A stretch of 64,000 nt of DNA from Bacilli bacterium (GCA_900769635.1 CAAGHJ010000014.1:2584-66583); one strand, 5' to 3'; positions 40,349-45,187 are shown, counted from the stretch's first letter. Made by a program: numbers and translations. Notes: generated from the letters alone by a model not told the origin.

Positions 40349-40461
40349 AATTGGATATGTTTGTAAGACCTCTTAGTTGTTCATACAACCGCACTAAAAA
40401 GGTATAAACCATATAGGTACCTTCAAGGCGAGTCTTATAATAAAATGTAAGGAGGTAAGAA
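40349..40461 (+). promoter_or_regulatory. Putative L21 ribosomal-protein leader / promoter region
   Basis: 113-nt structured, GC-enriched leader immediately upstream of rplU. Firmicutes carry an L21 leader here. Confidence 0.3.
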
Positions 40462-40761
40462 ATGAAAGCTATTATCGAAACAGGTGGAAAACAATACTAC
40501 GTTAGTGAAGGCGATGTAATTTATATCGAAAAACTAGATGCCGAAGAAGGAAAAGAAGTTGTATTTGACAAAGTCCTTATGGCAGATGGAGTAGTAGGAA
40601 ACCCTTATGTAAAAGGTGCAAAAGTTGTTGGAGTTGTAGAAAAACAAGGAAAAGCCAAGAAGATAACAATATTTAGATATAAACAAAAGAAAAGATCTAC
40701 AAGAAAAAAACAAGGTCACCGTCAACCATATACCAAAGTTACTATTAAATCAGTAAAATAG
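40462..40761 (+). CDS. rplU: 50S ribosomal protein L21
   Basis: [18 protein letters not shown]. Confidence 0.95.
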
Positions 40762-40768
40762 GTGAATT

Positions 40769-41062
40769 ATGATAAAAGTATATAATTATAAAGACAAAAT
40801 AACCATAAGTGGTCACGCGAGTTATAATGAGAAAGGACAAGATATAGTTTGTTCTTCTGTAAGTAGCATTGTAATGACTACAATTAATGCTATAAATAAC
40901 CTTGAAGAAGGTGCAATAAAAAGTGTTGTAAAGGAAGGTTATACGGAGATAATTATTCTAAAAAATTCCCTTATAGTAACAAAACTATTAGAAAATATGA
41001 TTAATTGTTTAAAATCAGTAGAAAAAAATTATCCAAAAAATATAAAAGTTAAGGAGGAATAA
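40769..41062 (+). CDS. prp: Ribosomal-processing cysteine protease Prp (YsxB)
   Basis: Conserved GHA...CSSVS motifs. Lies between rplU and rpmA. Confidence 0.85.
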
Positions 41063-41063
41063 T

Positions 41064-41354
41064 ATGGCTAAGTTCTTAGAATTAGATATACAATTATTTG
41101 CTCATAAAAAAGGACAATCATCTACATCAAACGGTAGAGATTCAGCAGGTCGTAGACTTGGAGCAAAAGCCGCAGACGGTGAATACATTTCCGCAGGATC
41201 TATAATTTATCGTCAAAGAGGAACTAAAATACATCCCGGAGAAAACGTAGGAAGAGGAACTGATGATACTCTTTATGCAAAAACATCTGGATATGTAAAA
41301 TATGAACATTATGGAAAAGATAGAAAAAAAGTTAGTGTTTATCTCGAAAAATAA
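41064..41354 (+). CDS. rpmA: 50S ribosomal protein L27 (with Prp-cleaved N-terminal extension)
   Basis: [17 protein letters not shown]... Confidence 0.95.
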
Positions 41355-41368
41355 ACACTAATTTTTCT

Positions 41369-41396
41369 TTACTTTTATAAATTTAAAGTGTATAAT
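41369..41396 (+). promoter_or_regulatory. sigma-A-like promoter TTTACT-17-TGTATAAT for the paralog pair
   Basis: Extended -10. Confidence 0.4.
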
Positions 41397-41423
41397 AATA
41401 ATATAAGTAAAGGAGAGGGAAGT

Positions 41424-42644
41424 ATGTTAAGTTTTTTACTAGCTCTAACCCCCTGTGAACAACCCGATGTATTACAAATAATAAGAATTATAAAAACAAT
41501 AATGAAAATAATATGTATTGTAATACCAATATGCGTTTTCATATTTGTAACCATTGACTTTGCTAAAAATGTCATTGCTTCTGAAGAAAAAGATATAGAA
41601 GTAAATAAAAAATTAGCTCTTAAAAGGATACTAATGGGAGTAGCAGTATTTCTAGTTCCAACTATTGTTATGACAGTAAATAACATACTAGGTTCTCTTG
41701 GTGTAAATTATACAGACTGTTTAACCAATGCTACTGAAGATGGAATAGGACGAGCTAGAATAAATTACAGTGCTTATCAAAAAACATTAGAACTATCAAT
41801 CCAAAAAACACTGGAAGCATCTAAGCAAGAAAAACCATCATCAGGAGAAACAGTTGATAGAAGTAATGGTTTTGGTGAAATGAAAGGCCATAACACTGAA
41901 GAATCATCTGGCAATTCATCATCAGATACCCCCTCACAAACAGGATCATCTACATACTCAGGTAACAAAATATCTTGGAGTGAAGTAGATGGAAATAAAG
42001 TAAGAAGATTCATCCATAAAATGGAAGGAACAACAGATACTACCTGTAATAACAATACTGGCTATAAAGTAACGTATGATACCATCGCTAAAAGTGAAAC
42101 CACAGCTTACGGTATAACAAAAAAGTATACTATGAATACAATTCGTAGTTGTAGTAGACTATCAGACAGTGAAAAAAAATACTTTTCTGATTCTAATTTT
42201 GTAACAAATGCCTGTATATCAAAAAATATTATGGATAAAGCAGCTGATTGCATATACGACTCTCACGCATCTAGTATTGTTAACACCATTAAAAAAAATT
42301 GTGGCAGTGATGTAAAATTTACTGAAAATCAGTGGATAGCCATTATGGATGAAGCCAATAGTGGAATAGGTCACGCTACCGAATCATTTAAAAAGTACTG
42401 TTCAGCAGTTAAATCAGGAAAAAACGGAAACGACGCCCTTTTTTGGGAATACTTTAAAAGAAAAAGAATGAACCCAACTTGTGCTTATGTAGCCCGCCGT
42501 GATTGTGAAGCAAGATTATTCTTTGAGGGTGATGATACTTGTGGAGGACAAAGTCCTTATAATGCAAACTATAAATATAAATACGGTAAATATTTAGATA
42601 CAAGCGTTTATCGAATAACAAAAGACAATACTTGTAAAGGATAG
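41424..42644 (+). CDS. Membrane protein: conserved N-terminal two-helix module plus S/G-rich linker plus Cys-rich extracytoplasmic domain (possible lysozyme-like hydrolase)
   Basis: RBS AAGGAGAGG. Two TM helices. 10 Cys in the C-terminal domain. EG...YDT...AYGIT is faintly GH24-like. Confidence 0.6.
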   Translation: MLSFLLALTPCEQPDVLQIIRIIKTIMKIICIVIPICVFIFVTIDFAKNVIASEEKDIEVNKKLALKRILMGVAVFLVPTIVMTVNNILGSLGVNYTDCLTNATEDGIGRARINYSAYQKTLELSIQKTLEASKQEKPSSGETVDRSNGFGEMKGHNTEESSGNSSSDTPSQTGSSTYSGNKISWSEVDGNKVRRFIHKMEGTTDTTCNNNTGYKVTYDTIAKSETTAYGITKKYTMNTIRSCSRLSDSEKKYFSDSNFVTNACISKNIMDKAADCIYDSHASSIVNTIKKNCGSDVKFTENQWIAIMDEANSGIGHATESFKKYCSAVKSGKNGNDALFWEYFKRKRMNPTCAYVARRDCEARLFFEGDDTCGGQSPYNANYKYKYGKYLDTSVYRITKDNTCKG

Positions 42645-42655
42645 AAGGAGGAAAT

Positions 42656-43753
42656 ATGATAGACTTATTTTTAGCATTAAGCCCTTGTCAGCAACCAGAC
42701 GTACTACAAATAATAAGAATTATAAAAACAATAATGCAAATAATATGTATTGTAATACCAATATGCGTTTTCATTTTTGTAACAATTGATTTTGTCAAAA
42801 ATGTAATAGCATCAAGTGAAAAAGATATAGAAGGAAATACAAAACTTGCTATAAAAAGAATACTAATGGGAGTAGCAGTATTTCTAGTTCCAACTATAGT
42901 AATGGCTGTAAATAATATGCTTGGTTCACTTGGTGTTGACTATGCCTCTTGCTTAACCAATGCAACCAAAGACGGAATAGCCAAAGCCAAAGTAAACTAT
43001 AAAGCATATCAAGAGAGCCTAAATAATCAAATAAATAATACTATCAATAATAATAAAGAAGATAAACCATCATCAGGAGGAACAGTAAATAGAGATAACG
43101 GTTTCTCCAATCTAAAAGGACATAAGGAAGATAACAATTCTTCCGGTTCAGGTGGAAGCACTTCTGAAAGCGGTGGCGACGGTGCATCAGGAGGCGGAAC
43201 AGGTGGAACGAGAGGCGATAATAGTGATGGAACTAAAAAAGTTTTATATGTTGGTGACTCTCGTACTGTTGGAATGTGTAATGCAATGAAAATAACAAGT
43301 GATTGTATTGCCGAAGAAGGAAAAGGATTATCTTGGCTTAAAACCAAAAATGCTGACATAAAAAGAAAAACAAGTTCTAGTCAAACAACAAATCCATATA
43401 ATGTTGTAGTGTTTAATCTAGGAGTAAATGACTGCAAAGGGAAAAATAGTGCAGCTAATTATGCAGAATTTTATAATCAGTATGCAGAATATAACAAAAA
43501 TGTAAAAGTTGTAGTTACATCAGTTACACAAGTATTAAATTCCGTAGCCAAGAAAAACGGATATACTGTTATAAATGCTGATATAATAAGTTTTAATAAA
43601 GAATTAAAAAATAAGTTGAATAGTAATGTTCAGTATTGTGATGTATATGGTCCCATAACAGGACACGTGGTAAGTTCGGATGGAATGCATTATGATAATG
43701 AAACATACAAACTTGTATATGAAACTATCCAAAAATGCGTAAATGGTGGTTAG
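42656..43753 (+). CDS. Membrane protein: the same N-terminal two-helix module plus G/S-rich linker plus SGNH/GDSL hydrolase domain
   Basis: RBS AAGGAGG. SGNH block I YVGDSRTVG, block III GVNDC, block V DGMHY. N-terminal ~120 aa about 85% identical to the upstream paralog. Confidence 0.65.
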   Translation: MIDLFLALSPCQQPDVLQIIRIIKTIMQIICIVIPICVFIFVTIDFVKNVIASSEKDIEGNTKLAIKRILMGVAVFLVPTIVMAVNNMLGSLGVDYASCLTNATKDGIAKAKVNYKAYQESLNNQINNTINNNKEDKPSSGGTVNRDNGFSNLKGHKEDNNSSGSGGSTSESGGDGASGGGTGGTRGDNSDGTKKVLYVGDSRTVGMCNAMKITSDCIAEEGKGLSWLKTKNADIKRKTSSSQTTNPYNVVVFNLGVNDCKGKNSAANYAEFYNQYAEYNKNVKVVVTSVTQVLNSVAKKNGYTVINADIISFNKELKNKLNSNVQYCDVYGPITGHVVSSDGMHYDNETYKLVYETIQKCVNGG

Positions 43754-43760
43754 TATCATT

Positions 43761-43780
43761 AAACCCGAAAGGGTTTTTTT
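43761..43780 (+). terminator. rho-independent terminator (+ strand half of a bidirectional pair)
   Basis: AAACCC-GAAA-GGGTTT followed by a T-run. Confidence 0.55.
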
Positions 43781-43786
43781 GTATAT

Positions 43787-43806
43787 AAAAAAACCCTTTC
43801 GGGTTT
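43787..43806 (-). terminator. Terminator for the minus-strand tRNA-Ser
   Basis: Mirror hairpin AAACCC-TTTC-GGGTTT, preceded on the + strand by an A-run. Confidence 0.5.
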
Positions 43807-43818
43807 AATAAACATTAA

Positions 43819-43909
43819 TGGCGGAGACAGAGAGATTTGAACTCTCGCACCAGTTTCCCAGTCTACACCCTTAGCAGGGGCGCCTCTTCAACCTCTTGAG
43901 TATGTCTCC
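43819..43909 (-). tRNA. tRNA-Ser (anticodon GCT)
   Basis: Reverse complement reads GGAGACA...anticodon loop CTGCTAA...long variable arm...GAGAGTTCAAATCTCTC...TGTCTCCGCCA. Confidence 0.85.
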
Positions 43910-43976: not shown

Positions 43977-45083
43977 CTATCTTTTCGCCATCCACTGTTC
44001 AAAAGTCTCTCCACTATCATAAATTTCCTTAGCATAAACCTTACCAACATATCTATAATGCCAAGGTTCATACATATAACCAGTAATATATTCCTTATCC
44101 TTAGGATATCTCAAAATAAACCCATATTTATAAGAATTACTAATAAGCCAAGAATATTCCATCTCTCCATCCTCAATATAAGAAAAAGTACCATTCAAAA
44201 TATCAACAGCAAGCCCCGTCTGATGTTCACTATATCCCGCTCTTGCCGAATAAGTCTCAGCCTTATCAAACCCATCCATTAATACATACCTATTATACAA
44301 ATTATTCTGATAGTCATAACTCCTATAACCACTACCAATAAAAATATTAACTCCCTCTTTCTTAGCATCATCAGCCATAACCTTAAAAGCCTCATAACTA
44401 TCACTTCTCATATACTGATTTTTAACACCATAACTAAGACTAACACTAACAAGACCTTCAGGAACAAAACCACTATCAAGCTTATGATACTTATTAACAT
44501 ACACTAAAATATCATTCGGATTATTAACATCCATTACATTCGTATAATAATCATTATCAAGACCAATATTAACAAAAGTAACATTATCAATAAGCCCATT
44601 TTCCGGATGCATATTAGCATAATTAATATATCTCTCCAAATAACCACTAATATAATAATTACAATTCATAATCCTACTAAAATTCTCATTATACTTACTA
44701 CTAAGAAGATATTCAATATCCTTACTACTACCAACCCTATAAAACAAATTAATATCCCCATCACTGTATCCATTATCCAGAAAAAAATTAACCTCTTTAT
44801 TAAAATTATCCCTCTTAACATAACTAATATTAAGATAATCATCAAGGTAAACACCCTTATACAAATTATTACTAATAGCCCTCTCTAAAGTATCCGAATA
44901 CCCATTAACACTCTTTGCCAAATTCCTATCCGTAATATAATTAGCACTCCCCTTTGAGTATCCAATCCCCTCCAAGTAAAATTCACTAAGTTTACCACTA
45001 TTATAAACATAAATATATCCGCCCGTAATACCAATAAGGACCAAAAGCAAAATAAAACATTTCCTAATACTCATATTCTTCAT
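43977..45083 (-). CDS. D-alanyl-D-alanine carboxypeptidase (peptidase M15B, VanY-like)
   Basis: SGYRSYDYQ, SEHQTGLAVD and EPWHYRYVG zinc motifs. N-terminal signal-anchor. Confidence 0.85.
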   Translation of the reverse strand: MKNMSIRKCFILLLVLIGITGGYIYVYNSGKLSEFYLEGIGYSKGSANYITDRNLAKSVNGYSDTLERAISNNLYKGVYLDDYLNISYVKRDNFNKEVNFFLDNGYSDGDINLFYRVGSSKDIEYLLSSKYNENFSRIMNCNYYISGYLERYINYANMHPENGLIDNVTFVNIGLDNDYYTNVMDVNNPNDILVYVNKYHKLDSGFVPEGLVSVSLSYGVKNQYMRSDSYEAFKVMADDAKKEGVNIFIGSGYRSYDYQNNLYNRYVLMDGFDKAETYSARAGYSEHQTGLAVDILNGTFSYIEDGEMEYSWLISNSYKYGFILRYPKDKEYITGYMYEPWHYRYVGKVYAKEIYDSGETFEQWMAKR

Positions 45084-45187
45084 AATATCACCAACCATAT
45101 AACTATTATACACCAAAAAAGCAAATAAAATATACAATTATGTTGAAAAAATAAAAAAAGTCCTGTATAATGAAAGCGGTGATAAAA

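Follow-up and report, generated by a model that had tools for sequence, protein, structure and literature searches.

Tandem genes of a gut Bacilli bacterium join a putative VirB2-like pilin module to two predicted cell-wall enzyme domains

Introduction

Two adjacent genes in a 64,000-nucleotide (nt) stretch of DNA from a Bacilli bacterium (GCA_900769635.1 CAAGHJ010000014.1:2584-66583; called the window below, with positions counted from its first letter) begin almost identically and end in unrelated domains. Why should one N-terminal module precede two different C-terminal domains, and what would such proteins do? A preliminary description of this DNA had proposed that these genes, here named A and B, encode the same conserved two-helix membrane module joined to hydrolase-like C-terminal domains that are unrelated to each other, and BLASTP, hydropathy analysis and AlphaFold2 (AF2) models bore this out. 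We propose that A and B are a membrane-tethered pair, a muramidase and a glycan de-O-acetylase, which remodels the cell's own wall and uses a co-opted pilin module as its anchor. The probability that we give to this proposal is about 0.58.

VirB2-like proteins of Gram-positive bacteria were recognised recently and have been seen as small, dedicated subunits of conjugation pili (bioRxiv 10.64898/2025.12.18.695078, December 2025). The parts described below are of kinds already known, namely a VirB2-like module, a GH24 fold and an SGNH fold. Their combination, its abundance and its housekeeping context away from type IV secretion systems (T4SSs) appear undescribed in the literature that we searched.

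Results

Two genes share one membrane module

The two genes and their parts, all on the plus strand, are as follows (aa, amino acids; TM, transmembrane helix; pLDDT, predicted local distance difference test score).

Gene A, 41424..42644, plus strand: 406 aa; pilin-like module, linker and Cys-rich GH24-like lysozyme domain (open reading frame, ribosome-binding site (RBS), AF2)
N-module of A, aa 1-115, 41424..41768, plus strand: acidic N-tail with Cys11, TM1 (Pro35, Asp45), basic loop (Lys48...Lys67-Arg68), TM2 (Phe76, Pro79), Cys99
Linker of A, about aa 136-185, 41829..41978, plus strand: disordered, Ser/Gly/Thr-rich; pLDDT <50 for residues 137-181
C-terminal domain of A, aa 186-406, 41979..42641, plus strand: GH24-like fold, 10 Cys, Glu201, T-x-Y-G-x-T (227-232), RRDCEARLFF
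Gene B, 42656..43753, plus strand: 365 aa; pilin-like module, linker and SGNH domain (open reading frame, RBS, AF2)
N-module of B, aa 1-115, 42656..43000, plus strand: 81% identity to the module of A
Linker of B, about aa 136-192, 43061..43231, plus strand: disordered, Gly/Ser/Asn-rich; pLDDT <50 for residues 136-192; likely breakpoint of a C-terminal domain swap
SGNH domain of B, aa 193-365, 43232..43750, plus strand: G200-D-S202-R, G256-V-N258-D, D342-G-M-H345, Cys328/Cys361

BLASTP aligned A with B at E = 2e-68, with identity unbroken from residue 1 to about residue 155 and none beyond. The shared module had been put at about 120 residues: its near-identity stood (residues 1-115 are 81% identical in both amino acids and nucleotides), whereas the shared region ends further on, as the alignment showed. 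A 27-nt stretch quoted earlier as identical was found in both genes, and the nucleotide identity of A and B in codons 16-45 was 93-96%. Across the wider family, conservation is limited to about residues 8-113, although A and B share more. Hydropathy analysis placed hydrophobic segments at about residues 20-47 and 66-88, with a charged loop between them. In the AF2 models (mean pLDDT 75.9 for A and 77.4 for B), an N-terminal helical hairpin (pLDDT about 85-90) runs into an extra helix that ends near residue 135; a disordered linker separates this from a globular domain modelled with confidence. The S/G-rich low-complexity linker reported earlier after the helices is this disordered segment.

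Cys11, Pro35, Phe76 and Cys99 were invariant in the family alignment, and Leu17, Asp45, Lys48 and Pro79 were almost invariant. In 147 homologues found by HMMER, the invariant positions were 93-100% conserved, and Arg68 was 94% conserved. A cleavable signal peptide lies directly ahead of the module, with its conserved Cys, in the homologues P0013, P0027, L032 and L015, and a large domain led by a signal peptide precedes the module in L049 and L096. Since a signal peptide or an exported domain comes before the module in these homologues, the N-end of the module would lie outside the cell. Further, charges counted from the sequence of A (net -2 in the N-tail; net +2 in the loop, with 6 K/R and 4 D/E) fit an out-in-out topology. 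We infer this topology, which is that of VirB2 proteins, for the module, and the enzyme domains and both Cys11 and Cys99 would then be outside. Because C11 and C99 are each conserved in 98-99% of the 147 homologues, they probably form a disulfide outside the cell.

The module is related to VirB2-like pilins

An exhaustive HMMER search with A against 1.84 billion cluster representatives (clusters at 50% identity) matched 1,913 clusters at E<=1e-3 and 343 at E<=1e-10. These matches mostly cover only residues about 5-180 of A, and in 131 of 147 cases the match starts no more than 15 residues from the N-terminus, in proteins of 130-500 aa. The 90%-identity cluster of A has 141 members, all from metagenome assemblies and none named. 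A word-indexed protein search with the module of A returned one fragment only; the same search with a 51-sequence profile returned 26 proteins, mostly short and stand-alone. The module profile found only G-protein-coupled receptor and channel noise among PDB sequences.

In Pfam, NCBIfam and PHROGs, nothing significant was found for A or its isolated module, and the pilin-like NCBIfam model NF045849 reached only E 0.57. PF18895 (T4SS_pilin), the family that serves to annotate the pilins of monoderm and Patescibacteria T4SSs, matched neither full protein at E<=0.1 nor the isolated module of A at E<=1. Among the 150 best homologues, PF18895 was the leading Pfam family (27 of 150, best 6.9e-10). 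When homologous modules were scanned alone, it was found in 30 of 51 (best E 5e-7), and the other families in that scan were scattered transmembrane noise, none close to PF18895. Proteins that share the module of A at E 1e-13 to 1e-29 include carriers of PF18895. Judged by these matches of its homologues, the module is a divergent branch of the PF18895 VirB2-like pilin family. The statement in the preliminary description that it matches no family was therefore too strong, and the likeness to VirB2/TrbC pilins noted there holds at the level of the family, given these matches and the operons of the stand-alone relatives described below.

The Pfam domains that accompany the module among the 150 best homologues were GDSL (15), CHAP (14), M23 (9), NlpC/P60 (4), VanY (4), ELLD (3) and glucosaminidase (2). 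More than 10 kinds of cell-wall-enzyme domain are fused to the module in homologues; the search for fusions to further C-terminal domains, suggested earlier, thus returned CHAP, M23, NlpC/P60, VanY, glucosaminidase and SGNH fusions. Further wall enzymes, fused or adjacent, were noted at L039:2947-3978 and L006:1427-2806. In L039, a domain with a glucosaminidase-like motif (...ESGW...) follows the module, and its gene is flanked by mraY/mscL and by the gene for an acidic protein of 707 aa.

Stand-alone relatives lie in T4SS operons and fused relatives beside housekeeping genes

A degenerate DNA pattern for the module (P-x9-D-[FL]-x-K-x18-K-R-x7-F-x-[VIM]-P) matched the window in A and B only, with 0 matches expected by chance. 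Metagenome contigs held at least 120 loci with the pattern; 118 of the 120 listed encode the module, and 59 of these 118 have two or three module genes in tandem. Clustering of the neighbours in the 118 listed loci revealed a fixed operon around the short stand-alone module genes, and also around genes that encode a signal peptide, an extracellular domain and the module. In this operon, a 330-aa protein is followed by the module pair, and then come a polytopic protein (about 650 aa), a two-TM protein (about 107 aa), a 188-aa protein and a VirB4-type ATPase (AAA_10/TraG P-loop); a coupling protein (T4SS-DNA_transf) follows further on, and a set of RcpC and TadA-like genes often lies upstream. 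The stand-alone module genes are directly 5' of the gene for the polytopic protein. PrgF and other Gram-positive VirB2-like proteins are encoded in the order VirB2-VirB6-VirB3-VirB4 (bioRxiv 10.64898/2025.12.18.695078), and the operon of the stand-alone relatives has the same arrangement.

In L117:1-14805, L071:1-13549 and L091, one same-strand operon joins a Tad-like pilus set (RcpC, TadA-like ATPase, two polytopic proteins and small one-TM genes) to a monoderm conjugative T4SS (VirB2-like pair, VirB6-like, VirB3-like, VirB4 and coupling protein). L014 and L055 hold the Tad-like part and the pilin pair without the VirB4 side. An intein (Pfam Intein_splicing, Hint) interrupts a UvrD-type helicase beside a module gene at L017:1818-3815. 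A reverse architecture was also observed: the module is C-terminal, behind a signal peptide and an extracellular domain of 150-380 aa; such a gene is often the second of a T4SS-linked pair, and its extra domain has no Pfam match. Genes of this kind are:

L049:7123-8493, minus strand
L013:35-1351, plus strand
L023:4367-5431, plus strand
L096:395-1582, plus strand

The fused architecture, defined as the N-module followed by a C-terminal domain of at least 120 aa, was accompanied by T4SS clusters in 0 of the 19 listed loci. These 19 adjoin mraY, ileS, fusA, PFOR or a phosphoglucosamine-mutase-type gene. Six fused homologues beyond these 19 are likewise flanked by housekeeping genes; the positions of fused homologues include those before rpsL-rpsG, after rpmF, after dnaE and near a PASTA kinase with rpmB. 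A protein of about 700 aa encoded next to fused genes in L039, L061, L069 and L077 was considered as VirB6-like and rejected, having no hydrophobic segments. In agreement with the earlier remark that no T4SS is nearby, no homologue of any T4SS-operon protein was found in the window or in the related genome L001 (see below), barring a generic similarity of the TadA ATPase of the window; T7SS, T6SS and T4SS (type VII, VI and IV secretion) genes are absent from the 64 kb.

These results bear on an alternative in which A and B would serve as accessory components of a T4SS or conjugation machine encoded elsewhere: the module would dock on a VirB6 platform and the hydrolases would open the wall locally, a fused VirB2-VirB1 function. 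The module is indeed homologous to T4SS-linked VirB2-like genes, its conservation is too high for a passive anchor, and Gram-positive T4SSs require membrane-anchored peptidoglycan hydrolases (PMC12857230). However, no T4SS gene occurs within 64 kb or in L001, the listed fused loci and the six further homologues point to housekeeping surroundings, and A and B come after ribosomal-protein genes with no terminator between. We consider this explanation unlikely; in the reading that we favour, the pair would work independently of a type IV secretion machine.

Alternatively, the fused proteins may still polymerise like VirB2 pilins and self-assemble, without a conjugation machine, into a short wall-spanning tube or filament that displays lysozyme, esterase, CHAP or M23 heads outside on the linkers. 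In the geometry of VirB2 pilins there would be space for a passenger attached C-terminally through a 50-residue linker, the positions in the loop and helices at which subunits would touch show little or no variation, and the T4SS-linked relatives likewise bear large extracellular domains on the module. Yet no VirB6-like base is encoded nearby, and a passenger of 170-220 residues on each subunit may clash sterically with tight helical packing. Such polymers seem to us quite unlikely; if they do form, they would be enzyme-decorated filaments for remodelling of the cell's own wall or for attack on neighbours, with heads exchanged by recombination in the linker.

Gene A encodes a predicted lysozyme-fold domain

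The predicted structure of the C-terminal domain of A is a lysozyme-like, two-lobe alpha/beta fold, as in phage endolysins; Foldseek lists the lysozyme-fold neighbours without significance. Five clear homologues of the domain were found, one of them on a different N-terminal region with immunoglobulin (Ig)-like repeats. The alignment shows an invariant Glu201 in xEG, T-x-Y-G-x-T, seven invariant Cys and RR-[DE]-C-E-A-x-L-[FY]-F. Seven A-type domains found nothing relevant in Pfam at E<=10, the domain had no match among PDB sequences, and hhalign of the A-domain profile against T4 lysozyme gave nothing. The C-lobe matched P22 lysozyme weakly in hhalign (E 0.046 over 66 columns, with an approximate P22 sequence). 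Relative to the GH24 arrangement E-x8-D/C-x5-T, Glu201 and Thr227/Thr232 of A are invariant, but with wider spacing and without a conserved Asp. The 10-Cys, lysozyme-like domain suspected earlier is thus recovered as a fold in the predicted structure, where sequence models miss it. As modelled, the C-terminal domain of A is a lysozyme-fold domain of a sequence family that is not in Pfam. A is predicted to be a GH24-type muramidase or lytic transglycosylase in which Glu201 would be the catalytic acid and several disulfides would stiffen the domain.

The fold of A is that of phage endolysins, and a two-helix membrane unit superficially resembles a class II holin; the pair could accordingly be read as what is left of a phage lysis cassette, in which the module would be holin-like and its partner an endolysin. 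However, tblastn with A gave no match in a phage collection of 50,697 records, the module pattern had 0 matches in the 2.9 million viral contigs of IMG/VR compared with more than 120 in metagenome contigs, PHROGs gave nothing significant and the window contains no phage genes. Homologues with signal peptides also indicate that both ends of the module are outside. The phage origin is thus largely refuted and retains hardly any probability, and the holin likeness raised in the preliminary description was not upheld. A plasmid collection likewise had no match to A.

Gene B encodes a predicted SGNH esterase domain

B matched Lipase_GDSL_2 at E 4.3e-7 (31.0 bits, just below the 32.9-bit cut-off), and 15 homologues matched this family at E<=1e-3. 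SGNH blocks I (GDS), III (GxND) and V (DxxH) are present in B. G200, D201, S202, G256, N258 and H345 were invariant in 17 sequences, and D342 is present in B. The predicted C-terminal domain has the three-layer alpha/beta/alpha SGNH fold, so that blocks and fold together support the earlier assignment to the SGNH/GDSL hydrolases. B is predicted to be an SGNH serine esterase (Ser202, Asn258, Asp342, His345) that would act on glycan O-acetyl groups, most plausibly those of O-acetylated peptidoglycan. Downstream of another gene for a module with an SGNH domain (P0007), the next gene encodes an Ig-like and polysaccharide-deacetylase protein.

The pair is conserved in a second genome and the C-terminal domain of B was exchanged

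The same A-B pair is syntenic in an independent genome, L001, a Hadza-gut metagenome-assembled genome labelled 'uncultured Bacilli bacterium', whose flanks are about 93% nucleotide-identical to the window. This was the only genome returned by a search with a single module. Between window and L001, module identity is 86% for A-A and 91% for B-B, compared with about 80% for A-B. Since the same pair occupies the same place in L001 and orthologues are closer than paralogues, A-B is an old tandem duplication and no artefact of assembly, a concern voiced in the preliminary description.

Flanking proteins of the two genomes are 91-100% identical, the module and the domain of A about 85%, the linker of A only 64%, the module of B 91% and the SGNH domain of B 43%. 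In P0003, a module 98% identical to that of B precedes a domain that is 44% identical; the alignment of B with P0003 loses identity within the Gly/Ser linker. The domain of B in the window is slightly closer to that of P0007 (49%), whose module is only 54% identical. The exchanged segment is:

SGNH allele swap of B: window 43232-43750 versus L001:11821-12324 and P0003

The comparison indicates that the C-terminal cassette of B was replaced by recombination, with fold and catalytic residues retained in the swapped alleles. Module shuffling, as proposed earlier, is thus apparent both in this exchange and in the many kinds of partner enzyme. Within codons 16-45 (41469-41558 and 42701-42790; 90 nt), the paralogues of one genome differ at 5-6 sites and the orthologues at 7-9, the reverse of what holds elsewhere; numbers this small give a weak hint of local gene conversion.

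Exchange of this kind would be expected if A and B were antagonistic, polymorphic-toxin-like effectors that turn wall-degrading heads, displayed on the surface or released, against competitors through a conserved delivery module. The domain of B is only 43-44% identical between strains in which the modules (91-98%) and the flanking proteins (91-100%) are conserved, A and B outpace the neighbouring genes in evolution, and many different lytic domains are combined with the module. On the other hand, an immunity gene would find no space (A and B are 11 nt apart, and a terminator and tRNA-Ser come right after B), the neighbourhood is of the core housekeeping kind and encodes no secretion system, and the swapped alleles keep their fold and catalytic residues. 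We therefore regard antagonism as decidedly improbable.

Genomic setting of genes A and B

Further features around the pair are:

L21 leader, rplU, prp and rpmA, upstream of A, 40377..41354, plus strand (Rfam L21_leader, open reading frames)
Promoter-like site TTTACT-17-TATAAT in the rpmA-A interval, 41368..41396, plus strand: 10/12 matches in a consensus scan; function unproven
Palindromic two-way terminator 3' of B, 43751..43816, no strand assigned: hairpins on both strands at 43761-43776 and 43806-43791

The most likely start codon of gene A is ATG 41424, because it is preceded by AAGGAGAGG (41410-41418), the RBS of gene A, which ends 6 nt before it, and yields a residue-for-residue alignment with the start of B. 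GTG 41388, the choice of gene callers, is less favoured; it adds 12 residues without counterpart in B. The RBS of gene B, GAAGGAGG at 42644-42651, lies 5 nt before the B start, and the stop of A is separated from that start by 11 nt. Of the promoter and strong RBSs claimed earlier for the pair, the RBSs were verified. A separate promoter is unproven, since promoter-like sites were no commoner in the window than in shuffled sequence (27 found, 26 expected) and a hairpin scan of the window found no terminator-like site between rpmA and gene A. The L21 leader RNA (Rfam RF00559) ahead of rplU, at 40377-40445, scored 43.6 bits against a gathering score of 36. As no terminator-like site separates rpmA from A, genes A and B may be the distal end of the rplU-prp-rpmA unit, under the same L21 leader.

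The Pfam families of the window (mutS, gyrB/parE-type, pyk, glyA, clpP and thyA-type) are those of a housekeeping chromosome. Peptidase genes of the M23 type (SpoIVFA-like) and M50 type (SpoIVFB-like) lie 1.1-2.4 kb upstream of the pair, and a GH24-like enzyme with an esterase could act on the cortex; a sporulation-specific role in remodelling of the cortex or germ-cell wall has therefore to be weighed. However, A and B follow ribosomal genes behind the L21 leader, and the fused relatives sit beside many unrelated housekeeping genes. Further, the order M23-type, M50-type, rplU, prp, rpmA is presumably ordinary in Bacilli, as in Bacillus subtilis, and no signal of the sigma-E, -K or -G type was noticed, although no search aimed at one was made. 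We consider a sporulation-specific role very improbable, and the link to sporulation or cortex made in the preliminary description found no support.

Between gene B and a converging tRNA-Ser(GCU) at 43819-43909 lies a near-perfect palindrome of 66 nt (43751-43816). A gene for a VanY-type D-Ala-D-Ala carboxypeptidase (43977-45137, minus strand; Pfam 3e-40) converges on A-B; it is a third wall-active enzyme near the pair and belongs to the less conserved flanks (91.5% to L001). At 33606-38883 lies a complete Tad-type pilus locus (two TadE-like genes, ParA/TadZ-like, TadA ATPase, TadB and TadC), followed by a gene for a 230-aa protein whose N-terminus, with ...GATLAYFTA..., resembles a SipW-type signal peptide as in TasA and camelysin. 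We considered the Tad locus, 2.5 kb upstream (33606-38069), as a functional partner of A and B because Tad-like genes precede some of the stand-alone module genes (L004, L042 and L117). This candidate was rejected, since the TadA of the window is about 29% identical to those ATPases and the other proteins of those operons have no homologue in the window.

Discussion

We propose that this lineage of gut Bacilli has recruited a VirB2-like hairpin as an N-terminal carrier for wall-active enzymes in general. A and B would be extracytoplasmic, each tethered to the external side of the cytoplasmic membrane by its two-helix hairpin: from an acidic N-tail (Cys11) outside, TM1 would run inward to a basic cytoplasmic loop (Lys48...Lys67-Arg68), and TM2 would return outward to Cys99. 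The following helix and a flexible linker of about 50 residues would let the catalytic domain reach into the wall. It is established for the relationship between Ape and lytic transglycosylases that O-acetylated N-acetylmuramic acid (MurNAc) resists lysozyme-type cleavage. As 6-O-acetylation of MurNAc blocks lysozyme-type enzymes, A and B, presumably co-transcribed, would act in sequence as the cell grows and divides, B removing acetyl groups and A then cutting the glycan strand. A muramidase paired with a de-O-acetylase would thus be a coherent two-step unit.

Several observations weigh against this proposal. The link from A and B to PF18895 is transitive, as both proteins miss the model, and short hydrophobic hairpins readily give spurious similarity, against which the invariant polar and Pro/Cys positions speak here, as do the operons of the relatives. 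Our view of the genome is 64 kb, so that a T4SS may be encoded elsewhere. The top structural neighbour of B is a sialic-acid esterase and no peptidoglycan enzyme, and SGNH folds act on many substrates. Further, A and B evolve faster than their neighbours and the domain of B is swapped between strains, which is odd for a plain housekeeping enzyme, and the module is conserved far beyond the needs of a passive anchor, which hints at an extra function. A conserved anchor with fast-evolving heads is not explained by own-wall remodelling, and this keeps alive a T4SS acting in trans, the polymer and antagonism.

Proteins of at least 1,900 clusters (50% identity) start with the module, the cluster members that were looked up are all unnamed, and the genes place wall enzymes at core-genome positions of uncultured gut Bacilli. 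The present assignment offers, for many hypothetical proteins of the human gut microbiome, a functional handle as wall hydrolases and esterases tethered to the membrane, and adds a divergent Cys-rich lysozyme-fold family that sequence models miss. It also poses the question of whether the pilin module is a mere anchor or brings assembly or targeting to wall enzymes. The strain-level swap of the B domain suggests selection on wall acetylation by phages, host lysozyme or competitors.

Comparison with known systems

Among enzymes, GH24 lysozymes (T4 lysozyme, P22 gp19, DLP12 RrrD and the muramidase domain of SpmX) show no Pfam or PDB sequence match detectable with A. Unlike them, A has ten Cys, an insertion of 10-20 residues between the Glu and the beta-hairpin, and an unconserved second acidic residue. 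B was compared with the C-terminal domain of OatA, PatB, Ape1 and carbohydrate esterases CE2/CE3. It differs from these SGNH enzymes in its GDSR block, its extra conserved Cys pair (328/361) and its pilin-like anchor; OatA uses an acyltransferase domain with 11 TMs.

Polymorphic toxin systems, like the family of A and B, combine a conserved N-module with many C-terminal domains, and the breakpoint of the B allele swap lies in the linker. Unlike such systems, A and B have no immunity gene and no dedicated secretion system, and they keep fold and catalytic residues.

VirB1-like peptidoglycan hydrolases have a single N-terminal anchor helix or a lipoprotein signal, without a VirB2-like hairpin, and are encoded within the T4SS operon. 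The fused module family, in contrast, lies outside T4SS operons in all 19 listed loci. The two groups draw on the same pool of wall-lytic domains (muramidase/SLT, CHAP, LytM/M23 and NlpC/P60). Further, VirB1-like hydrolases such as PrgK, TraG of pIP501, Orf14 of Tn916 and CwlT are, like A and B, membrane-anchored, extracytoplasmic and modular (PMC12857230).

The module itself is most like VirB2-like pilins (PF18895; PrgF of pCF10; the pilin arrays of Patescibacteria), which also have two TM helices, a short charged loop and both ends outside. Tandem paralogues are common there too, as in half of the listed loci of the module. VirB2 pilins polymerise into a pilus on a VirB6 pentamer. Unlike the pilins, A and B lack a T4SS neighbour, lie in a ribosomal-protein and housekeeping locus and miss the PF18895 model. 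Finally, VirB2-like pilins are small and stand alone (about 50-150 aa), whereas A (406 aa) and B (365 aa) carry 250-290 extra residues that end in an enzyme domain.

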